Origin: an uncultured Verrucomicrobiae bacterium
Lineage (GTDB): Bacteria; Verrucomicrobiota; Verrucomicrobiia; Limisphaerales; Palsa-1400
DNA: 64,000 nt
NCBI GenBank assembly: GCA_963702845.1
Contig: OY969763.1
Location: 3,488,001 to 3,552,000, forward strand
Reading direction: 5' to 3'
In this document: piece by piece, positions 7,001-61,837 of the stretch
Numbering within the stretch: position 1 is the stretch's first letter
Layout: the number at the start of each line of letters is the position of its first letter
Translations under genes and position numbers: made by a program
Notes under the pieces: generated by a model
The model's input: only the letters and a program-made list of their open reading frames with translations
Databases searched by the model: none
What the model was told of the DNA's origin: nothing

Positions 7001-7018
7001 GTTCTGCAAGAGACGACT

Positions 7019-9559
7019 CTACCGCACAAAGGTCGCTTTGACTCGTCGCGAATTCTGCATGTAACTGCCCCAAAGCAACGCACCGAGAAAAATCGCAACA
7101 GGATTCGTGTATGTCTTCGCATCTCCTCCTTTGATCATGTGCACCAATCCCGCGTCAATGGCCACTCCGATCGCTTGCACGGTCAGAAAAAGAATAAACA
7201 ACGTTGGAAACAACCGCCGCTTTTTAAAAAACAATATTAACAGGAACACCGCGAAAATGCTCATGCCCAAATTAAAGAGCAGGTCAAAAATCAACGTCGG
7301 CGCCCACAGCGAATTGTAATCAGTTGAGCCCGGCATTGTCAGCGCTTGCCACGATGCCAGCGAATAAACCGGCCACGATTTTGCGACCGCTCCAAGTTTG
7401 GCGAATATTCCCATGATGAGCAGGAAGCAAAGCACCGCCAGCCACCCACCAAGTCCCTCCAGGTGTTTGTCTGTCTCTACGGCCATCAATGGCGGAGCCG
7501 CGGGCTGATACCGGCAAGCAAAGACTCCGCCGACCAAAACCAACGACGAAAAGCAAAAACCAATCCCGATGATCGCCCAGTTTGGATCGTTCGACACCAA
7601 TGACGCTATCGGTTTCGTAACAGTAAACGCCGCGTCATCGGTCACCTGATTTACAGCGCGTTTATACGCTCCAACTTTCGCAGCCGGCACCGTGTCGGTG
7701 AAAGTGCGATACTTGAACACCAATGTCGTGCGCGTAACCGAATCGGTGACGTCACTCGTAAAATCAAAAAACTCATTCCTGATTTCTTTCCGGTCCGGTT
7801 TGATTCGCCACTTGGCCGGGTGATTGATCTCAATCGTGTGCTCTCTGTTCGCAGGATGATACATCGCATACGGTGAACTGCGCGTTTCACTCACCGGCGC
7901 CCCGAGCAGGTCGCGTATCGTACGCGGCGAAAAAGAACACGATTTGCGCTCGTCACGACCCTCCACCCAAATATTCGGTATTCGATAGTTCTCCTCCGTA
8001 TCGACTGTATTCGCCCGTTCATCGTCATAAATCTTCACGCTACCGACCATTTCGATCCCGGCGTAGGCAGAGGCGTAGTAATTCAGATAACTTTTCTCCA
8101 ACTCCGCTTGTGAGACATTCGCCACTGCTCGCCGCAAACCATCCGCGTCCAACCCGCTCGTCCGCGACTTGACCTTCAAGTAGGTCATTCCATTTGTTCC
8201 GACAATCGAGAAGCTCTCCGTCACCGTCATGTGCGGAACGCCAGTCTGCATCGGCTCAATCCGCACCAACTGCGTCGCTTCCGGATCGACCACCAGCCCA
8301 AACCGATAATCTGGAAAATAACGGTCCTTCAATCCGCCGCGTTGTTGACTGATCGTTGGGTCCACATAGTAAGTTTTTTCACCAACCACCAACTGAACCA
8401 CGACATGGTTGAACGCGAACGGTGACGGCTGCCAATCTTCAATGCTGCGTCGCGCGTAACTATTCACCAGCACCGGTTTTGCCACGACACCGAGTTCGCG
8501 CAACATCGTGCACAACAAAAATGCCTTGTCCTTGCAATCGCCGAAGCGTCGCGCGAACACCGTCGATGGATCCGACGGTTCATGCGAATGCGGGCCAAAC
8601 TCGATTCCCATGTAACGAATCTGGTCCTGCACAAATTGAACCGCCGCAGTCGCCCGCACCTCTGCCTGCTTATTGAGCCCCCACAATCGCATGCTGTTTT
8701 GCAGCTCGGGCGACAGCTCGTTTTTCGAAACGTAAAGCTTGCACGCCCACCGCGCGACCTCTGCCCAATTTGCATATTCGGTCACGTTGATTTGCGGATG
8801 CGTTTCGTACCAAATCGGCGTTCCTGGCTCCGCCGCGAGGGCTGGAACGTTCGACCATTTCCAAACATATTCCGTTTCGTCATCCGTCCGCGTGACGGTC
8901 GGCTGCACAACCGTGCCCCGGTTCTGGATCGTAATCCGTCGTGATGACGGGCAGACCAGGCGATAGCGCTGATTTTGCACCGGCACCTGCCACTGAACGT
9001 ACCAGGCGTTCGCAAACCGGTTTTCAAGAATCGGATTCGTTCCTTTAACCGTGTAGCTGAAATCGATCAGGTCTCCCGGACGCACATCTTCCAGCAAACA
9101 AATCGCCGACCAACTTCCGTTGTAAATGTTTCGATCAAGATCCTTTTCCTGCTGAATGAGCTTGAACTTCTTTTCATCCATTTGACTCACCGCGTTGGTG
9201 CCGCGGATCACCCAAACACTGTGAATGATCAATTCCTGATAGGTCGGATCGAAATCGAACGAGAGTTGCGAGCCGTGTTCCACTCCCGTTTCGTTCAATA
9301 CCTGCCGGCAAATTCGCGTGTAGATTTCGCCTGTTCCAATATTTTCCTGCGAGTCGAGTAATAGAAATGCCTGACCCGACGATTCGTTCTTGTGCAGCGG
9401 CAACCTGTCGATGTGGTTCGTAAAAAGACGAACCCAGTCGGACTCAGGACCGAAGTTACATTTGGATTTCGGTTTCTCTTGCGCCGCAACCGGCATCACA
9501 TGAACCAAAACCAGCACTGCTATAAAAAATGCGACCACCCGTCGCGTTGTTTGGACCAT
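7019..9559 (-). CDS. DUF3857/transglutaminase-like protein with C-terminal DUF2569-like membrane domain
   Basis: Signal peptide; RRFGDCKDKA and FNHVV...YVDPT triad motifs; C-terminal GLGGWL TMs ending SRRVKATF. Confidence 0.85.
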   Translation of the reverse strand: MVQTTRRVVAFFIAVLVLVHVMPVAAQEKPKSKCNFGPESDWVRLFTNHIDRLPLHKNESSGQAFLLLDSQENIGTGEIYTRICRQVLNETGVEHGSQLSFDFDPTYQELIIHSVWVIRGTNAVSQMDEKKFKLIQQEKDLDRNIYNGSWSAICLLEDVRPGDLIDFSYTVKGTNPILENRFANAWYVQWQVPVQNQRYRLVCPSSRRITIQNRGTVVQPTVTRTDDETEYVWKWSNVPALAAEPGTPIWYETHPQINVTEYANWAEVARWACKLYVSKNELSPELQNSMRLWGLNKQAEVRATAAVQFVQDQIRYMGIEFGPHSHEPSDPSTVFARRFGDCKDKAFLLCTMLRELGVVAKPVLVNSYARRSIEDWQPSPFAFNHVVVQLVVGEKTYYVDPTISQQRGGLKDRYFPDYRFGLVVDPEATQLVRIEPMQTGVPHMTVTESFSIVGTNGMTYLKVKSRTSGLDADGLRRAVANVSQAELEKSYLNYYASAYAGIEMVGSVKIYDDERANTVDTEENYRIPNIWVEGRDERKSCSFSPRTIRDLLGAPVSETRSSPYAMYHPANREHTIEINHPAKWRIKPDRKEIRNEFFDFTSDVTDSVTRTTLVFKYRTFTDTVPAAKVGAYKRAVNQVTDDAAFTVTKPIASLVSNDPNWAIIGIGFCFSSLVLVGGVFACRYQPAAPPLMAVETDKHLEGLGGWLAVLCFLLIMGIFAKLGAVAKSWPVYSLASWQALTMPGSTDYNSLWAPTLIFDLLFNLGMSIFAVFLLILFFKKRRLFPTLFILFLTVQAIGVAIDAGLVHMIKGGDAKTYTNPVAIFLGALLWGSYMQNSRRVKATFVR

Positions 9560-9615
9560 GAACCGAATTGTGTCCGATGCACGATAAAACGAAAAGCGTT
9601 TTCACTTGGACAACG

Positions 9616-9668
9616 TTCGGATTGCGGGTTGCGAGGACGACGTTCGGCCTCGCAACCCGCAATCCGAA
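9616..9668. repeat. 21-bp perfect inverted repeat just after the terminase stop; related core at 11297-11321
   Basis: TTCGGATTGCGGGTTGCGAGG ... CCTCGCAACCCGCAATCCGAA; no U-tract on the minus strand. Confidence 0.8.
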
Positions 9669-9670
9669 AA

Positions 9671-11134
9671 TCAACACACGTGAGCACTCGGCCCTGAGCG
9701 CAGCGTCTTTGCCGCATACAACGCCAGGGCCAGTGCCCAAAAACGATCCGCATGACCGTTCTCGCTCCGACCCGCGCTAAAACGGATGTTGCCGCTCGCC
9801 GTGATTTCTTTGCGCACACTGCGCAGGTCGGCGCGAATTACGTTTTCATTTGGAGTACGAATGGTTCGCTGCTCGAATGCGGTGCGCAATGGGTAAGCGA
9901 GTTCTTCCTTCATCTCGGCCGTGAACGTCACCGGCCCGACGCGCCATTGGGTGTAGCGCTTCAAGGCGCGTTCGGCGAATTGGCGGCCGATCCCGGTATT
10001 GTCGATGCAAACGCGTTTGACGCGGTTCCATTGCATGAGCGCGTCGAGGCCGGCTTCCTGCGACTCGAAGGTTTCCTTCTCCATCGTTTCGACCAGACGT
10101 GTGTAATAGACGTCGCCCATTTTTTCGAGGAGCCACATGACCGACAAATCTTTTTCGCGCCCGATGTCCATGCCGAGAAACCAATCGTTCTGCGATTTGT
10201 TGATCATGTCTTGCGACAGTTCCCACTTGTCTTCCGGCGGGTATTCGCAACTGGCGATCAAATCATGTGGCAAAAACGCGGTGCGAATGTCGCTCGCGAC
10301 GCACATATATTCCTGCTGGAAAAATTGTTCGTCCGGACATTGGCTCCGCTGATAATTGAAATAATCCGCCTCATCCATTTCCTGCACCGGATCCTCTTCC
10401 GGCGAATGCAATTGAATCTTGTAGAGCAACCCTTGATCGAGCGCGTCTTGGAATGTCGTTTTATGGAAACTGAATTTCTTCGGATTCCCGCCATGGACAA
10501 TTTCTTCAACGAGGTCGTTGAAATACGTGTCGCGCCCGCGTTGCGTCGAAATAATTTCCAACTTGCTCCCGCCCCACATCGTGCCGGGAAAAGCGACTCC
10601 ATAAAGTTCGCGCGCGTGCGGATGCGTTGCGAACTCATCCAAAATACGATCACCCGTTTTACCCGCCTGCGCGTTGACGCTCGAGCTCATCGAAAAAATC
10701 CGGCACCCATTCGCGAACCGCAGCACATACGCCGTATGCCCCTCGTCATCGATAACCCTGAGCCCTTCCTTCTCCGCGTAAACCTGGATCCTCTGCGCAT
10801 ACGCGTAGCAACCTTCGAGAAACATACGGGCCTGCCCTTCATTGCTGCTGCACACCCATCCGTCGGTCGTACAACCCGCCAGGCTCTTGCGTTCCACCAA
10901 CGACATTTGCGACGATTTGCTCCCGCCGATCTGGCGCGACTTCAGCCAAAGCTTCAGCCGGCTATAATCGTCGATCCAACCGCGCTGATACGGCAGCGAG
11001 ATTCTTTCTTCCGGGATAATTTTAGCCCGCCCAATGTGACGGCTCGGCACGATGATCTTTGCCGGTTCCGGCAAAATCAATCCGTTCTCTGCTTTCAAAA
11101 CTCCACTCTCTGCGTTCAAAACTGTTGCATTCAT
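9671..11134 (-). CDS. Mu-like phage terminase large subunit (gp28-like)
   Basis: LPYQ Q-motif, KSRQIG Walker A region, ILDEFA Walker B, IIST coupling motif; RNase H acidic motifs GMDIG, IDNTGIG and GHADRFWALALA. Confidence 0.9.
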   Translation of the reverse strand: MNATVLNAESGVLKAENGLILPEPAKIIVPSRHIGRAKIIPEERISLPYQRGWIDDYSRLKLWLKSRQIGGSKSSQMSLVERKSLAGCTTDGWVCSSNEGQARMFLEGCYAYAQRIQVYAEKEGLRVIDDEGHTAYVLRFANGCRIFSMSSSVNAQAGKTGDRILDEFATHPHARELYGVAFPGTMWGGSKLEIISTQRGRDTYFNDLVEEIVHGGNPKKFSFHKTTFQDALDQGLLYKIQLHSPEEDPVQEMDEADYFNYQRSQCPDEQFFQQEYMCVASDIRTAFLPHDLIASCEYPPEDKWELSQDMINKSQNDWFLGMDIGREKDLSVMWLLEKMGDVYYTRLVETMEKETFESQEAGLDALMQWNRVKRVCIDNTGIGRQFAERALKRYTQWRVGPVTFTAEMKEELAYPLRTAFEQRTIRTPNENVIRADLRSVRKEITASGNIRFSAGRSENGHADRFWALALALYAAKTLRSGPSAHVC

Positions 11135-11172
11135 AAAAATTCATATTCCTTTCATCAAATAAACAAAACTTC

Positions 11173-11259
11173 GTAGCAGCCGACGTCAGGAGGCTCTAAT
11201 TTCCCTTCATTTCGGCAACACGCCGAAACAAGTCAGAGCCCCCTGACGTCGATCGCTAC
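11173..11259. repeat. GTAG-type REP doublet between the two terminase genes; partial copy at about 40170-40197
   Basis: GTAGCAGCCGACGTCAGGAGGCTCT ... AGAGCCCCCTGACGTCGATCGCTAC, imperfect inverted pair. Confidence 0.7.
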
Positions 11260-11322
11260 CCAACTCGATTCCAACCCCCCACCCTCTTCTTCCTCATGCG
11301 AGGCCGACGTTCGGCTTCGGCC

Positions 11323-11988
11323 TTAGATCCTCATATCCCGTTTAATCCGTTCCAATTCCTCGCGCGTGATCCCGCCCCTCTGGTTCTGCTTCGACGTCGT
11401 AGTCTTCTTCGCGCGCTCCAGCGCCCGATACCGTTTCAACTCCAGCTCCGCATGCTGCGTAAACACCTCGTTCCGCAACTGCGAATTCACCGCTCGCACC
11501 AACCGGAAAAACATCCCCGGCTCCTTCTTCGCCGCCGCGAGCAACTTCTCCCCATCAAACCGTTCCAACACATCATTCAACTGCTCCGCGACCACCACAT
11601 GATTCATCAGCGCGAACCCGCTCTTCCCCCGCATCCGCCGCACCTCCTTCGCCAAATCCCCGGCCTTCTCCCGTCGTTCCACGCGCCGCTCCTTCCGCAG
11701 CACCCAATCCTGGAACCCTGTTTTCCCCCAACGCGACAACGACGACTCCGAAACCTCAAATCCCGATTTCTTAAGTTCCGCCCCGATATCCTTTAAAAGC
11801 GCCCCATCCTCAAACCGCCGATTCACCATTTCCCTCACCTTCAGCGGCAACCGCGCGACCTTGCTGACACTCCGCCTCCGCCCCGGCAAAACCGCCTCCA
11901 CGACTGGCGGCAACACCGCAATAATTTCGCTACCATCACGTGCCCCTTCTGCGACGGACAACGGACTACTAACAACTGACTCATTCAT
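11323..11988 (-). CDS. DUF3486 / Mu gp27-like protein (putative small terminase)
   Basis: SKVARLPLKVREMVNRRF...GFEVSESSLSRW HTH-like N-terminus, C-terminal GGITREELERIKRDM; directly upstream of the terminase; true start may be later. Confidence 0.75.
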   Translation of the reverse strand: MNESVVSSPLSVAEGARDGSEIIAVLPPVVEAVLPGRRRSVSKVARLPLKVREMVNRRFEDGALLKDIGAELKKSGFEVSESSLSRWGKTGFQDWVLRKERRVERREKAGDLAKEVRRMRGKSGFALMNHVVVAEQLNDVLERFDGEKLLAAAKKEPGMFFRLVRAVNSQLRNEVFTQHAELELKRYRALERAKKTTTSKQNQRGGITREELERIKRDMRI

Positions 11989-12273
11989 AAAATCACCTTT
12001 CGTTCTCTCAAATCTCCAATTTCAAACTTCAGACTTTGTAATCTGTAATTTGTAATTACTTGCCGATTGTGACATGTAGCCGCGTTTCAGTCAAAAAATG
12101 TAGGGAAACCAGGGAAAGGAGGGAAAGAAATGATATTTTTATTTGGAAAAAAATGGTGATTTTAGAGGATTGGCATGGAAGTTGATTGAGCTCTGGCGAG
12201 GTAAAGGGGGAAGTAGAAAAACATCATTGTTTGAAAAGTCATGAAGTAAGTAATTGACACTGCAACGCTCCTG

Positions 12274-13202
12274 AATCCCAACGGGATTTAAATCACTCAG
12301 CCCAGGGTTGCGAGGAACGAGCTACCCTGGGTTACGATGCAAACCAATGACCTCAACGCTGAAAGCGTTGAATCAAATGATTGATTGTACACCGTCACAA
12401 ACATCATCGTATTCTTATGTCGCAATCATTGGCGAAAATCCTCGTCCACGGCGCTTTTCCACAAAAGAACGCCGTCCCTTTCTGCGGGAAAAACCATTGC
12501 GTGACGAGTTGCACCACTACATAGGCGGCATTCTCGGAAACCTCGACTGCGTTCCGATCATCACCGGCGGCGTGGAAGACCACGTTCATTTTTTATGCGC
12601 ACTATCGCGCACGGCGCAACCTGCGGAAGTGGTCAAAGAGATCAAACGCGGTTCCTCTTTGTGGATCAAAACCAAATCTAACGACCTCCGGGATTTTGCA
12701 TGGCAAAGCGGTTACGGCATGTTTTCGATTGGATATTCCCAAATCGAATCCGCACGCAAATACATCGGCAACCAGGAAGAACATCACCGAAACATTTCGT
12801 TCCAGGACGAATTGCGCGAAATATTGAAACGGTACGACGTGCAATTCGATGAACGGTATGTTTGGGATTGAACATTTGATTCAACGCTTTCAGCGTTGAA
12901 TAAATTATTGTCCACTAACCCAGGGTAGCTCGTCCCTCGCAACCTTGGGCTGAGTGACTACAATCGCTTCGCGATAAAAGCCCACTGATTGCAACCACCA
13001 ACGATTTCCAAAGGACTCCGCAGATCGACGTGTAACCTCCAACGAATCCCAAAGGGATTCCATCACTTAGCCCAGGGTTGCGAGGAACGAGCTACCCTGG
13101 GTCACAGCCAAATAAATCAATTCAACGCTGAAAGCGTTGCATCGAATCATTGATTGTTACACGTATGCCAACACCAATGTATTGGCGTGTCGCAATCATT
13201 GG
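12274..13202. repeat. Three ~100-bp REP/REPIN-like units (12274-12392 direct, 12877-12975 inverted, 13045-13202 direct)
   Basis: Each unit has three hairpins: AATCCCAA(C/A)GGGATT, CCCAGGGTTGCGAGGAACGAGCTACCCTGGG and CAACGCTGAAAGCGTTG. Confidence 0.9.
12417..12871 (+). pseudogene. tnpA: IS200/IS605-family / REP-associated Y1 transposase (RAYT) with a 1-nt frameshift near 12445-12458
   Basis: ATG 12417 gives MSQSLAKILVH; the -1 frame continues FSTKERRP...DHVH (HUH)...FAWQSGY...KYIGNQEEHH. Confidence 0.85.
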
Positions 13203-13374
13203 ACATTCCTAAACTGCCCGCCACCAGCATACCATCCCTGCCTGCTTGCGGTTGACTGTCCACCTATAGATGTCCAGCATTAATCAACACGCGGCTAAAC
13301 TTGAACGTCGGCGAATATGTTAAAATCGGGGCAAAACAACTTCATAATCAGTGGTTAGCCGCTACGCGCAACGC

Positions 13375-13785
13375 ATGGAGATTATCGAATATACTGTGGC
13401 TGAGTTTCATGGTCCGGACGGCCAGTGTCGTGGCACTGTTGCGGATTTGATGCTCGATGCACACATGATTCCGCGGTGCGGTTTTATTCCACCGTTTCGC
13501 GTTGTTGCCGCCGTCATTCGTTCAGGAGGTTCGCGTGGCGGCATGAGCCCCGGCTGTGTCTGGCAGCCATTCGAGTTGAGCGAGGACGACTATTATCAGG
13601 CGGTTGCTCGCCTTGAGGGATTTACGCCTGTTGATCTCAAAGGTCGGCATCGCGACCCGCACATCACGGGCGAGATTCAACCGGATTATGCTGCATCTGA
13701 CACGGATGATTACCGAGTTTGGATTGACTCGTTAGTGCAGAGGGGGCATTTGCCAGGCGGCCCATTTCGAGAGGTGAGACGATGA
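13375..13785 (+). CDS. Integron cassette 1, hypothetical protein
   Basis: ORF between core site GTTAGCC (13354-13360) and an attC. Confidence 0.75.
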   Translation: MEIIEYTVAEFHGPDGQCRGTVADLMLDAHMIPRCGFIPPFRVVAAVIRSGGSRGGMSPGCVWQPFELSEDDYYQAVARLEGFTPVDLKGRHRDPHITGEIQPDYAASDTDDYRVWIDSLVQRGHLPGGPFREVRR

Positions 13786-13792
13786 CGAGGTG

Positions 13793-13891
13793 GGCTAACA
13801 AATCGCTGCAGGCAACGCGAGATGACCGCTTCAGGTCCGCTTCGCGGTTCACGCCGAGTAGTCCCGCGCGCCTGAGCTCTGAACGTTATGC
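13793..13891 (+). mobile_element. attC recombination site
   Basis: R'' GGCTAAC, L'' GCT(G)CAGGC with extrahelical G, L' GCCTGAGC, R' GTTATGC; R'' is the exact complement of the upstream GTTAGCC. Confidence 0.9.
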
Positions 13892-14322
13892 CTGAAAGTC
13901 GAATGCTGTCGGAGCGATTCCGAGAATTGCGGGGGCGTGCGGGCCTCACCATAGAAGAGGCGTCGGCAAGGATGAACGTTTCGCCGTTCCACATCGAAAC
14001 CACAGACGATGACTTTACTATCAGCTATTCTCCTGCCGACGTGCGGCGATTCTGCAAGGTCTTAGCTGCGACGCCATGCGAACTTTTCGGGGTAATTATT
14101 GCTGAGTCGCCCGTTTCGGCTCAAGAGCTGGTGTCACGTATCAATGAAGAGTGTCTCAAGCGTGGTGTCACCCTTGAGCAGTTCGAGGATGTCGTGGGCT
14201 GGCCACTGAGTCACTGCATGGACCCTCCTGAGCGACTGCTCGACCACATGACATTGGACGGACTTCAATGGCTGTGTCGCGAACTCGGCATTCACTGGCA
14301 CAGGGTTATCTTGAGCTTATGA
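13888..14322 (+). CDS. Integron cassette 2, XRE-like HTH protein (two HTH-like halves)
   Basis: FRELRGRAGLTIEEASARM and RGVTLEQFEDVVG; ATG lies inside the attC R' box. Confidence 0.7.
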   Translation: MPESRMLSERFRELRGRAGLTIEEASARMNVSPFHIETTDDDFTISYSPADVRRFCKVLAATPCELFGVIIAESPVSAQELVSRINEECLKRGVTLEQFEDVVGWPLSHCMDPPERLLDHMTLDGLQWLCRELGIHWHRVILSL

Positions 14323-14328
14323 CAACCG

Positions 14329-14385
14329 GGCATAAAAAACGTGCCGCACTCAATGCCGGGCATTCATCCCGTTTTGATTTCGACC
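14329..14385 (+). mobile_element. Degenerate 5' half of a second attC
   Basis: GGCATAAA just after the cassette-2 stop, one mismatch from the expected GGCATAAC; no 3' arm or R' follows. Confidence 0.55.
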
Positions 14386-14408
14386 TTCCACCCAGTTATA
14401 GTGTCTGT

Positions 14409-14619
14409 ATGAAGAGCTGGATTGTCGCCGACGCCGAACATCTGGGCGGAAGTCTGCGGGTGCGCGGCACGCGGCATTTCCGTCGCTTTGATCCTCGAGT
14501 GCTTGGCCGCCAACATGACCATTCCACAAATCGTGGAAGCCTATCCAAGCCTTACTGAAGGTGCCGTTCGCGGCGCCCTCGCTGAATTCGCCGAAAAACA
14601 AGAATCATTGTCTGTTTGA
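14409..14619 (+). pseudogene. DUF433 family antitoxin-like gene with +1 frameshift at about 14475
   Basis: MKSWIVADAEHLGGSLRVRGTR / ISVALILECLAANMTIPQIVEAYPSLTEGAVRGAL; no partner toxin downstream. Confidence 0.8.
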
Positions 14620-14700
14620 GTCATTTCACCTCGCTTTCCGAACCGAACTCTTTGTGTTCTTTGCGATCTCTGCGGTTAAATAAAGTTCTTCACTGCATCT

Positions 14701-14729
14701 TTGACAAAGCCGCTACTTCATTCCATAAT
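14701..14729 (+). promoter_or_regulatory. Near-consensus sigma70 promoter
   Basis: TTGACA-17 bp-CATAAT. Confidence 0.6.
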
Positions 14730-14900
14730 CATGCGCTATGAAGACAAACAGGCAGACACAACAGAAAACAAAGCGGACGCACCGACCAGCACAACTGATC
14801 GCGTTCGCCTGCCTGCGTTTGCACCCTGTAGCCCCCGCCCCATCTGCTATTTGCTATTTGCCATTTGCTTTCCCCTGCCACCGCTCAATCCCGTCGAAAA

Positions 14901-15075
14901 AGTCAGCAAAAGTCACTTGCTGTCACCTACTGCCGGCTACTGCCACCAAAAAAATATTTTTTAAAAACACCCCAAAAACCCACTTTCCTCCACGCCCGCT
15001 TGCATTTCATCACATTATGAACGCTGTTTTTTGCCCCGTTTTTGCATGCTTTTCGCGCACCTTCACGACACTCAC
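14901..15075 (+). repeat. Phased 10-bp repeat element, copy 1
   Basis: AGTCAGCAAA/AGTCACTTGC/TGTCACCTAC/TGCCGGCTAC/TGCCACCAAA, then A/T tracts and GCCCCGTTTTTG; similar to the reverse complement of 39845-40016. Confidence 0.75.
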
Positions 15076-15148
15076 CTCCAGCGTTGAATCGCAATTCTCT
15101 CGATTGCTATTCGGTCGCCATTCCGATATTTCTTGCTCGACCGTCTCT

Positions 15149-16654
15149 ATGACTCGACCCAACAAAAGCGCGTTCGTCTTCACGTACTCTCTCGTCTTGC
15201 TCGTTTGCTCGGCAATCTTTCTACAGGCTGCAACGGAAACACCGCCGCCAATTCCACGCGAGTTTCGCGGGGTTTGGGTTGCGACGGTGGCGAACATTGA
15301 TTGGCCGCTTAAGAAAGGGCTTTCCACAGCCGAACAAAAAGCTGCCATGGTCAAGATCATGGATGAAGCCGTCGCGATGCATCTCAATGCGGTCGTTCTC
15401 CAGGTGCGCTCGCAATGCGACGCCATTTATAAATCGTCTCTTGAACCGTGGTCGCCGTCGCTCACCGGCAAGATGGGACAGGCACCCAGCCCCTATTACG
15501 ATCCGCTCGACTTCGCCATCGCCGAAGCGCACAAGCGCGGGCTTGAACTGCACGCCTGGTGCAATCCATTCCGCGCCGGCATCAAAGCGTATTGCAGCAA
15601 CGCGCCCGCATCGCACGTCACGCGCAAACATCCTGAGTTCACTTTGGATTACGGCAAAATGTATTGGCTCAACCCCAACGAGCCGGCCGCGCAGGATTAT
15701 TCTTACAAAGTCGTGATGGACATCGTCCACCGCTATGACGTCGACGGCATTCACTTCGATGATTATTTTTTCCCCTACAAAGAAGAGGACGCGAACAAGA
15801 AAGAGATGCCCTTCCCTGACGAGCCGACCTACCAGCGCTACGTCGCGCGCGGCGGTAAACTCGACAAAGCCAACTGGCGCCGCGCCAATGTCGACGCCTT
15901 CGTCAAACGCGTGCACGACGGCATCAAACAACAAAAGCCGTGGGTGAAATTCGGCATCGCGCCATTCGGCATTTGGAAAAACGGCGTGCCGGTTAAAGTC
16001 AAAGCGACCGATTCCTACGACACACTTTTTGCCGACGCCCGCAAATGGATGCTCAGCGGTTGGCTCGATTACACATCGCCGCAACTTTATTGGAGGGTCG
16101 ATTATCCCGAGCGCAGCTACGCCACCTTGCTGCATTGGTGGGCGCAACAAAACACGCTCCATCGCAATGTTTGGCCCGGCCTATACGATAGTGCGGTCAA
16201 CGAACCGGATAAGGAACTCGGAGGCGTAAAAATCACGACGAACGACATCGTCCGCCAGGTCCAGATCGCGCGTAACGAACCGGGCGTGTCCGGCACCATT
16301 CATTACAGCATGGTCGCTCTTGAAAAAAATCGCGGCGGCCTCAAAGAAGCGCTCGCCCCGCTCTACGCGCAACCGGCGCTCGTGCCCGCTTCACCGTGGC
16401 TTGGGTATTCCGCAGTCAAACAACCCAGCATCAAAATCAGTCATGGCGAACACATCACGGCCAAATGGAGCGGCGGCGGTCATGTCTGGCAATGGGCCGT
16501 GCAAAAGAAAATCAACGGCAACTGGATCACCGAAATTTTCCCGGGTTCACAAACTTCGTGCGTTGTGAAGGAACCGGCCACAGCGATTGCCGTGACCGCG
16601 ATCGATCGCGTCGGGAACGCGAGCCAACCCGCAATCATTAAAAGCAATCAATGA
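15149..16654 (+). CDS. GHL10 (family 10 glycosyl hydrolase-like, YddW/DigH family), exported
   Basis: REFRGVWVATVANIDWP, GLELHAWCNP, YDVDGIHFDDYF, PQLYW; start set at MTRPNK from the signal peptide. Confidence 0.9.
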   Translation: MTRPNKSAFVFTYSLVLLVCSAIFLQAATETPPPIPREFRGVWVATVANIDWPLKKGLSTAEQKAAMVKIMDEAVAMHLNAVVLQVRSQCDAIYKSSLEPWSPSLTGKMGQAPSPYYDPLDFAIAEAHKRGLELHAWCNPFRAGIKAYCSNAPASHVTRKHPEFTLDYGKMYWLNPNEPAAQDYSYKVVMDIVHRYDVDGIHFDDYFFPYKEEDANKKEMPFPDEPTYQRYVARGGKLDKANWRRANVDAFVKRVHDGIKQQKPWVKFGIAPFGIWKNGVPVKVKATDSYDTLFADARKWMLSGWLDYTSPQLYWRVDYPERSYATLLHWWAQQNTLHRNVWPGLYDSAVNEPDKELGGVKITTNDIVRQVQIARNEPGVSGTIHYSMVALEKNRGGLKEALAPLYAQPALVPASPWLGYSAVKQPSIKISHGEHITAKWSGGGHVWQWAVQKKINGNWITEIFPGSQTSCVVKEPATAIAVTAIDRVGNASQPAIIKSNQ

Positions 16655-18103
16655 AACCCAGACTAATTTTAATAGCGCTGCTTGCGCTTACCGGATGTCA
16701 CACGCCGACGCTTCCGCCCCCACCGACGGTGCAACGCGAATTTCGCGCGATGTGGATTTGCACGGTCAACAACGCCGATTGGCCATCCAAGCGCACGCTC
16801 AGCACCGACGAGCAGAAAAAAGAACTGACCGATATGCTCGATCGCGCCGCCGAGCTCAAATTCAACGCGGTCATTTTTCAGGTCCGTCCCTGTTGCGATG
16901 CGATTTACGATTCACCGATCGAACCATGGTCGCAATATCTCACCGGCAAAATCGGCCAGGCGCCCGAACCCTATTACGACCCGCTCACCTTTGCAGTTGA
17001 AGAGTCACACAAACGCGGTCTCGAACTGCACGCATGGTTTAATCCTTATCGTGTCGGCATCGGCAAACTCACCAACGAAGTTCCCGCCAAGCACGTCACA
17101 AAAACGCATCCCGAACTCGTGCACGTTTACGGCAAGCATCTCTGGCTTGATCCCGGCGAACCGGCCACGCGCGAATACTCGCTCAGTGTCATCAAAGACG
17201 TCGTCCATCGTTACGACGTCGACGGGATTCATTTCGATGACTACTTTTATCCGTACCAGGAAAAGACGAACAAAGACGACAAAGTTTACATTCCCTTTCC
17301 AGACGACGTTTCGTGGAAAAACTATCAAGAGCAACGGCGGCACACTTGGACGCGAAGATTGGCGTCGCGATAACGTGAACAAATTTGTTCAAGAATGCGC
17401 TAGCGCAATTAAGGCCGACAAACCCTGGGTCAAATTCGGCATCAGCCCATTTGGCATTTGGCAGCCCGGTTACCCCAAACAAATCAAAGGCCTCAATTCC
17501 TACGCATCATTGTATTGCGATTCGCGCATGTGGTTGAGCAACGGAATGGTCGATTACCTCAATCCGCAACTCTATTGGCGCATCGATAAAAAAGAACAAA
17601 GTTTCCCGGTGCTCCTGAAGTGGTGGACCGAACAAAATCCGCAAGGCCGACATCTTTGGCCGGGCATGATCGTCAAAGGCCCCACCGAACTGACAAACCA
17701 GATCGCCGTCACCCGCGCTCAACCTGGAACAACGGGCCACGTCATCTTTAAAGCCACCAGCGTGGTCAACAGCACCAATGGCGTCGACGCCGCTTTGGCG
17801 GAAGCTTACACAGTCCCTGCCCTCATCCCCACGACTCCCTGGCTCGGGACCAACACGCCAGCCGCCACCGAACTGTCGCTCAAACGCAAACGTTACGAAG
17901 TTAAACTCGCATGGAAACCGCTCGATGACGCCCGCTGGTGGCTGGTTCAGCAACAGCTCGGCTCGAATTGGACCACCGAAATTTTGCCCGGCTCCGAAAC
18001 CAATTACGTCATCAAAGCGACCAATTCCGCCGCGTTGCCCGAGCACGTTTATATTTCAGCCGTTAATCGCCTCGGCAACATTGGCGGTTACGCGGCGAAA
18101 TAA
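16651..18103 (+). pseudogene. Second GHL10 paralogue (lipoprotein) split by a +1 frameshift at about 17327
   Basis: LALTGC lipobox; N-half in ORF 16651-17373, C-half (SNGGTLGREDWRRDNV...) in ORF 16898-18103; collinear with the upstream paralogue. Confidence 0.85.
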
Positions 18104-61507: not shown

Positions 61508-61837
61508 ATTTTGAGGAATCCACGTTACGCAGAAAGGGTCGGGCATGTCACGGACGGAACCGCGTTGCGGTTCGGGAACGGTTTGTTTGAAGAGTCGACG
61601 CGCTCCGTCCGGTGCGAGCAGGTCGTTTTGGACCAACAGGCTGTATCGGCGTTGCGCGGTAGCTGGATCAACCGTTTTTGTTCATTTTTCTAATGGGACG
61701 ACGTGGAAGTCTTCCCTGCCGTCGCATTTTTAATTTTCATGGAGGCAGTGTAGCACCGTCACTTGGACAAAGGCTGTCCAAGTGAAAACTTTCCTGAAAT
61801 TAATCTGCAGCCAGTGATGTGGCTGGAGTGGAGTTAC

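Follow-up and report, generated by a model that had tools for sequence, protein, structure and literature searches.

Portal-less terminase genes in a Verrucomicrobiota chromosome and their probable role in the packaging of host DNA

Results

A terminase pair within a variable island

The window that we analysed is a stretch of 64,000 nucleotides (contig OY969763.1, positions 3,488,001 to 3,552,000) from the genome of an uncultured Verrucomicrobiae bacterium, here called G000 and assembled as a single 6.03-Mb contig. Its minus strand carries a gp27-type small terminase gene, terS (11323..11988, an open frame of 221 aa), followed by a large terminase gene, terL (9671..11134, an intact frame of 487 aa with ATPase and RNase H-like nuclease domains). 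TerL matches the Pfam families Terminase_6C (E 8e-18) and Terminase_6N (E 9e-7). It keeps the catalytic residues Q50, the Walker A region K65-S72 and Walker B D166-E167, as well as the motif at S196-G200 and the nuclease residues D323/D378/D463, and its ATPase and nuclease residues are those of its prophage relatives. These checks of frames and residues agree with the initial annotation of the locus, which had described both genes as uninterrupted and the TerL motifs as intact.

The nearest cultured relatives of the window TerL are phage B3 and related transposable phages (49–51% identity), and it is 52% identical to the TerL of a Mu-like prophage in a member of the same family (G012). For TerS, a Pfam search returned nothing at E<=0.01, but the protein matches PHROG 426 'terminase small subunit' (2e-8) and falls with Atlas clusters bearing PF11985 Phage_Mu_Gp27 at 0.94. 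Two of its paralogs match PF11985 directly, a family that we take to be the former DUF3486. The predicted TerS structure (pLDDT 79) has a disordered N-terminal tail, a helical HTH-like domain at about residues 43–95 and long helices. The model resembles G20C TerS (4xvn) weakly (Z 6.0, rmsd 9.2, 94 aligned residues), and a Foldseek search yielded no TerS at E<=0.001. In general, the locus has the anatomy of a terminase: catalytic domains in TerL and, upstream, a TerS for which sequence, modelling and a weak fold match suggest N-terminal DNA-binding and oligomerisation helices.

What the pair lacks is its usual company. In Mu/B3-like prophages, including those with the B3-like gp27/gp28 terminase, the portal gene directly follows terL, and transposase and tail genes share the locus; none of this holds here. 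Genome-wide searches, one of which had a silent control, gave no match in the window to two portal families, two capsid families, the prohead protease or the tyrosine integrase, and the nearest integrase match (PF00589) lies more than 800 kb away. The absence of head genes and integrase noted earlier was thus borne out. The missing neighbour had been named as Mu gp29, which has to be corrected: since the related prophages of the order use an HK97 portal, that is the absent partner. A query with the single TerL against collections of genome contigs and viral contigs returned no matches.

Upstream of terS lies a putative promoter, M2 (12066..12140, minus strand), in which three to four 9-bp direct repeats (~12100-12129) precede a -35 element at 12089-12094, a 17-bp spacer and a -10 element at 12066-12071; judging by this consensus, it would drive the pair. 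A leader with 7-bp tandem repeats (11995..12062, minus strand) stands ahead of the terS start, and locus L106, which holds the closest relative of the window TerL (see below), has a leader with 7-bp repeats at the same position. Between the two genes there is a REP-like inverted doublet (11173..11259) whose family occurs at 18 loci, some of them near other terminase units. A hairpin core follows terS (11297..11321, core at 11297-11319), and a long hairpin with the same core (at 9630-9652) follows terL (9616..9668) and is, by its sequence, probably a terminator. The core is found at 20 genome sites and at 1 in the reversed control. These repeats had been read as marks of long residence; they are present, but as common genome-wide families they have no dating value. 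Beyond the long hairpin lies a half site of the M1 palindrome (9600..9612, plus strand), the full form of which heads the other class of terS units.

The next gene, encoding a DUF3857/transglutaminase/DUF2569 protein (7019..9559, minus strand), begins 112 bp past terL. The distance of about 110 bp given in the initial annotation therefore holds, but the gene is not part of the conserved host backbone, as it is missing from this site in the congener G001. There, the position is an empty site: the hscA-like and GHL10 genes lie about 150 bp apart, and in G000 they are about 8.1 kb apart. Because these flanking genes adjoin in G001, we regard window positions 7010 to ~15150 as a variable island.

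The other cargo of the island is located upstream of terS. It consists of a RAYT gene (Y1_Tnp, ORF 12308-12871) with flanking REP arms (12275..13147, plus strand), then two cassette-like frames with an attC-like repeat between them and a DUF433 frame (13351..14619, plus strand). The attC-like repeat recurs at 6 loci of the genome, and the RAYT and cassettes reported earlier were recovered together with the DUF433 gene. The right end is formed by a collapsed sister element without terS (14640..14970, plus strand), which retains -35 and -10 elements (14701-14729), a leader, a 10-bp-phased array (~14905-14950) and an A-tract.

Three soil DNA runs from one study contain 6–7% of the sequence words, and no RNA run was among those listed. 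At 85% likeness, the 24 of 34 matching pieces listed include 7 of 151 nt that match the terS-terL region perfectly and none spanning an island junction. As these runs possibly come from the source study of the assembly, we do not count them as independent evidence.

Terminase paralogs in the genome and its congeners

Profile searches of G000 revealed 8 terL and 14 terS loci. Six are terS-terL pairs without a portal gene, one pair is accompanied by a lone HK97 portal gene, and one terL belongs to a distant head module; another six terS genes are solo. All of the dispersed units sit among ordinary genes, and no other phage gene adjoins any of the six portal-less pairs.

We compared these units with the congeners G001 and G002 and with the metagenome locus L106, which is a congener by its host genes. 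The closest relative of the window TerL is that of L106 (68% identity), likewise portal-less and located before rpoD. Between the two, dN is 0.244, dS 1.55 and dN/dS 0.16; four host genes in the same comparison gave dS of 0.68–2.06 and dN/dS of 0.03–0.09. A TerL fragment of G001, 70% identical to that of the window, lies at a third site, also without a portal. The dN/dS and the search for portal-less pairs in relatives, both proposed in the initial annotation as checks, hence point to purifying selection and to several such pairs (in L106 and elsewhere in G000).

In a TerL tree, the window and L106 copies are joined with support of 100. One clade (SH-aLRT 99) unites the window TerL with three further portal-less copies of G000, the copy next to the lone portal and the head-module TerL of both G000 and G007; two G000 copies fall outside it. 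This was a quick run with no bootstrap, from which 6 partial TerL sequences were excluded; an outgroup row, that of G037, was not in frame.

The positions of the units differ between species. Among the congener units with an informative flank, 0 of 11 adjoin a G000 unit, and 44 of 47 ordinary gene adjacencies are conserved (the 11 do not include C585, C445, L196 and L202 of G001 or L204, L206 and L208 of G002, which have no informative flank). We rejected the idea that non-synteny is merely rearrangement, given the 44 of 47 control adjacencies that are kept. That all sites are old shared slots fits only the 2 of 11 sites that hold relics (background 121 of 3000), with a third visible by eye. 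The orthologous slots carry different contents in the congeners.

The simplest account of such genes would be that they are neutral remains of repeated prophage insertions, or that the junction is a misassembly. It draws on the 80 metagenomic relatives closest to the TerL, at least 45 of which are portal-linked (13 have a cellular gene next and 22 were not classed), on the interruption of 2 of the 8 terL loci in G000 and on the junction with the DUF3857 gene, which no read bridges. Debris would not be expected to show a dN/dS of 0.16 against a portal-less sister at host-level divergence, nor to place portal-less copies in one clade with a head TerL. The six pairs free of other phage genes and the same anatomy repeated at many loci and in congeners speak against it as well. 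We therefore consider this account largely refuted and most improbable. With purifying selection, portal-less relatives and many copies, the pair is not a simple remnant. Nor is it fixed at this site as 'a domesticated two-gene module', as had been put forward: relatives lie elsewhere, the congener site is empty and many copies have collapsed.

A distant head module without tail genes

The initial annotation had pointed to head and tail genes elsewhere in the genome as a further check. A head module was found, but no tail. The single HK97 module lies 1.7 Mb from the window (contig C1, 5.223-5.251 Mb, 28 kb), lacks tail and integrase genes and comprises genes for a cI-like repressor, a divergent HTH_17 (Xis/AlpA-like) protein, a primase-helicase, protease, capsid, adaptor and portal, as well as terL, terS and holin-like genes. 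The HTH_17 match, in the gene at C1:5223943, is below the Pfam cut-off (E 0.0017). Host genes are interspersed within the module, which is syntenic in G002, including the regulator pair and the junction with gcvH. Its head genes show dN/dS of 0.10–0.25 between G000 and G002.

No PF00589 match is nearer than 85 kb to the module. A search with 13 multi-member late-gene families from relatives gave G000 homologs of the adaptor, capsid and protease only, the one exception being a weak match (E 3e-4) to an unrelated long protein. The gene families that six tailed relatives conserve behind the adaptor have no homolog in G000, and neither a head-closure homolog nor one of the transposase, Gam or tail of the Mu-like prophage in G012 was found.

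In G000, G002 and G007, the match of the module's own TerS to the 217-position profile begins only at position 87-95 and extends to 211, and no HTH is encoded upstream of the gene in any frame. The dispersed TerS, that of the window included, retain the DNA-binding domain. Known TerS proteins of gene transfer agents (GTAs) are also without a DNA-binding domain, according to PMC6854486 and PMC11841831. In G000, codon 113 of the head terL is an in-frame TAG, which is absent in G002 and may be a sequencing error; if it is genuine, a TerL would have to be supplied to the module in trans. Another island in the genome set, unrelated to this module, encodes heads only and has a lone pair of its own.

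Promoter motifs of the terminase units and the head module

A weight matrix for M2 found 32 sites in G000, all intergenic, and 0 in the reversed genome. M2 stands ahead of 4 intact terS genes, and 4 further sites head the three head operons and the primase gene. No intact phage gene follows the other 24 of 32 sites; M2 may therefore have spread as a repeat element rather than being a kept regulon. Eight sites carry the same leader and start-codon stub, which are those of one terS; at others, the stub is that of terL or of a second terS gene. A broader promoter pattern was set aside: it gave 36 matches against 41 in the reversed control, though 35 of the 36 were intergenic.

Exact M2 was found in 0 of 40 relatives. 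Its scaffold occurs in G002 at 3 sites (the adaptor gene, the holin-like/terS operon and one dispersed terS) and in L106; both use a 9-bp unit that differs from that of G000. Searches of G001 (73% complete), G007 and G146 did not recover it. The predicted recognition region of the HTH_17 protein differs in G002 too. A precedent is BldC, a MerR/Xis-like protein that occupies 9-bp direct repeats in head-to-tail order (PMC5859096), and by analogy the Xis/AlpA-like protein of the head module may bind the M2 repeats.

M1, the palindrome of the second unit class, has 28 sites in G000 and 1–2 sites in 12 of 300 other genomes. It also stands ahead of genes for WYL regulators, mfd, ligA and a recA-like gene, a set that suggests damage control. 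Its likeness to the PafBC motif is loose, with one extra spacer base relative to the form given in PMC8635444. A reading of M1 as tandem LexA boxes was dropped, and the two PF01726 matches are not full LexA genes.

Such a gene set also fits an anti-phage function. Upon infection or DNA damage, the pair would poison packaging as a decoy TerS/TerL or cut DNA abortively, and diverged copies would cover many phages. The many TerS of the genome are only 20–33% identical to that of the window, the island also carries cassettes and a DUF433 gene, and the M1 units share their motif with the genes just named. Against it stand the complete set of ATPase motor motifs in the window TerL and the promoter that the pair has in common with the genes for capsid, portal and primase, on which selection also acts. 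PADLOC 2.0 (2023 library) matched 0 of 6 island proteins. We hold this function to be improbable.

TerS genes and phased arrays across the order

The TerS profile was positive in 49 of 301 genomes of the order, and 16 of these have at least 5 copies, with no more than 9 scored in any one genome. Across the order, terS is mostly solo and often located beside 10-bp-phased arrays. In 40 hand-picked terS loci from 14 genomes, some of them close to contig ends, the neighbourhood included a 10-bp array in 23 cases, TerL in 7 and a portal in 5. The arrays number 25 in 39 kb near terS and 3 in 194 kb farther off, i.e. they are about 40-fold denser near the gene. G000 itself has 198 intergenic 10-bp arrays, as against 1–32 at five other lags. 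Of its terminase-type units, 10 of 18 have an array within 400 bp, compared with 114 of 1500 two-gene spans, but there is none at this distance from the window pair. TerS sequence, in turn, does not correlate with the array unit (Spearman 0.03, p 0.52). For these two reasons no pac site could be identified.

A hand-picked sample in which kin are not independent comprised 26 terS-positive and 9 terS-negative genomes. Of the positives, 19 gave a TerL match and 16 a capsid match; of the negatives, none gave either. Four of the 26 (G137, G172, G191 and G291, all with several terS) have neither TerL nor PF05065 capsid matches, and 7 have no TerL. This suggests that the wider terS family needs no resident head.

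These data raise the question of whether the units are selfish minimal satellites, independent of the resident head. In that case terS, with or without terL, and its array would hijack infecting B3-like phages, and the promoter would be merely inherited. The dominance of solo terS, the concentration of arrays around it and the four genomes with no TerL or capsid matches would follow naturally, as would the recent duplicates, which are 92% identical. There is also a precedent, since the TerS of phage-inducible chromosomal islands (PICIs) is known to redirect packaging, as stated in PMC10085698. On the other hand, no integrase, replicase or att site accompanies the examined units of G000. Moreover, hijacking by TerS needs no intact, selected TerL, and the promoter in G002 is limited to head operons and one terS. 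On balance, independent satellites seem unlikely.

A role apart from packaging would be a further option: TerS paralogs would wrap or regulate DNA at phased arrays, and the TerL nuclease would drive cassette shuffling at hotspots. The excess of 10-bp arrays in G000, the solo terS of TerL-less genomes and the different contents of orthologous slots are all consistent with it. It leaves the selection on capsid and portal and their common promoter unexplained, and TerS sequence is not linked to the array unit. We regard such co-option as very unlikely.

Discussion

Many movable copies, and a promoter common to a distant capsid set that the host keeps, indicate that the window pair, rather than being a leftover of a prophage, probably takes part in loading host DNA into virus-like particles. 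Three roles had been offered for the pair in the initial annotation. The packaging arm of a split GTA fits best because the promoter of the pair is common to the distant tail-less head module. With a probability of roughly one half, we therefore propose that the host maintains a split capsid system resembling GTAs or capsid-forming PICIs (cf-PICIs), for which the window pair would serve as a mobile cassette that sets the start of packaging.

Such a system might work as follows. The Xis/AlpA-like protein would bind the 9-bp repeats and switch on the heads and the window pair together. TerS would bind at or near its own unit; TerL would cut there and pump chromosomal DNA from the unit into the resident procapsid, or that of a helper. 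TerS-TerL would thus initiate headful packaging at their own chromosomal sites. Filled heads would be completed with the tails of other phages, in the manner of cf-PICIs, and the result would be transfer like lateral transduction from many chromosomal start points. The units would spread and reshuffle via shared flanking repeats and often collapse, leaving promoter, array and start-codon stubs. One observation is at odds with this model. Lateral transduction moves DNA downstream of the packaging start (PMC12829572), but in the window the cargo is found on the upstream side of terS, from which it would not be carried.

The system can be compared with GTAs. Their structural genes are vertically kept, often in several loci, and the head module agrees with this, albeit in two species only. 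Loss of the DNA-binding domain from TerS is true of the head module in three genomes and untrue of the window TerS. Unlike GTAs of the RcGTA type, which have a head-and-tail cluster, the system has no tail genes that we could find, and its head module keeps a primase-helicase and a repressor/Xis-like pair. It also differs by its many extra terS-terL units, which change sites and have a DNA-binding domain.

The distant module, and not the window pair, carries the cf-PICI gene set (regulators, primase, protease, capsid, adaptor, portal, TerS and TerL, without a tail). According to 10.1101/2025.02.11.637232 and PMC10085698, cf-PICI heads leave the cell tail-less and then acquire phage tails. The module yielded only one of the two neck proteins, and there is no cf-PICI-like integrase (PF00589) within 85 kb. 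Whereas cf-PICIs are compact (median 14 kb) and excise and package themselves, the module spans 28 kb, has host genes inside and occupies the same locus in G002. Unlike in cf-PICIs, the terminases are dispersed across the chromosome.

Likewise chromosomal are the TerS of PICIs and SaPIs, with which lateral transduction offers another parallel: from its position in the chromosome, a unit might initiate packaging and so mobilise the host DNA downstream of it (compare PMC12829572). The difference is that a unit consists of one or two genes in up to 14 copies and lacks integrase, replicase and att sites. Hence we propose that the system is GTA- or cf-PICI-like in its working and yet a member of neither group, having no tail and no integrase. 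In the literature that we covered, partly as excerpts and mostly outside the subscription journals, we found no prior description of such a system in this order.

A bolder extension, which we consider doubtful, is a packaging arrangement that is new in kind. One tail-less, sequence-blind capsid kit would be served by dozens of movable cassettes (terS with or without terL, and phased arrays at about 130 array loci per chromosome) that act as address labels for the start of packaging. The whole chromosome would then be exported in particles with borrowed tails, and the cassettes would be the smallest satellites known, spread across a large order of soil and freshwater bacteria.

It is worth stressing that lone terminase genes are an unsafe marker of prophages. 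The predictions made here for the regulator, the promoter and the start sites are specific enough for direct testing. If the proposed reading is true, the system would represent an intermediate state between a phage satellite and a gene transfer agent. It would also outline a route by which GTAs may originate: a head sheds its integrase and the specificity of its TerS, and this specificity shifts to separate mobile cassettes. The whole order would thereby gain a route for chromosome-wide gene transfer.

Head genes and portal-less terminases

A tail-less HK97 head module is located in the window's own genome (G000) at C1:5222700-5251300 (loci L059 and L056). It carries a cI-like/HTH_17 switch and a primase, host genes are interspersed in it, and codon 113 of its terL is an in-frame TAG. 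We found a second head-only island, with another terminase family, at C1:1716000-1741300 and 2814196-2816502 (L229-L231). This island bears cassette cargo, and its lone terS-terL pair is headed by a variant of M1, the palindrome that precedes one class of terS units. Two solo 123-aa HTH genes (positions 877015 and 1556891) belong with it.

On contig C3 of both G008 and G014, we observed a cluster of head and probable tail genes with a portal-protease fusion (L062-L065), in which no integrase or replication gene was seen. The same RND efflux operon adjoins it in both genomes, and the HK97 head module of G000 contains a homolog of this operon. We regard the cluster as a candidate GTA-like element.

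At L068 (G010 C135), a Gam gene lies upstream, and lysis-like genes, a terS-like gene and terL are followed directly by host genes; head genes are on a different contig. Seven loci (L126, L128-L130, L133, L134, L145) form a tight TerL clade in which no portal was found downstream of TerL. One member has a CHC2 primase upstream, and the clade is possibly a satellite family. Further portal-less TerL clades occur in other bacteria (L138, L143, L151-L154, L174, L179, L185 and others), with HU, phosphoglucomutase or desaturase genes after TerL.

Sequence features and repeats

The window's terS (11323-11988) has an extreme third-position GC skew of +0.72. Values among terS genes range from -0.71 to +0.81, and fewer than 1% of similarly sized genes exceed +0.6. 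Separately, a REP-like hairpin sits in frame within a terL paralog (G000 C1:4754623), and similar repeats extend the N-termini of several TerS proteins.

Genome-wide, G000 has 198 intergenic 10-bp-phased arrays of about 52 unit types, often terminated by an A-tract. They fall into about 130 loci separated by a median of 35 kb; three arrays are in the window (14929, 39985 and 43349). The window also holds tandem GHL10 genes (14738-18103), the second apparently split by a frameshift near 17370.

M1 has 28 sites in G000 in all, including one at about 61760-61784 in the window. It lies upstream of genes for WYL regulators and for a conserved protein of 65-69 aa, as well as mfd, ligA, a recA-like gene and five terS genes. 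M1 may be a WYL-type damage box that has been amplified in this genus.
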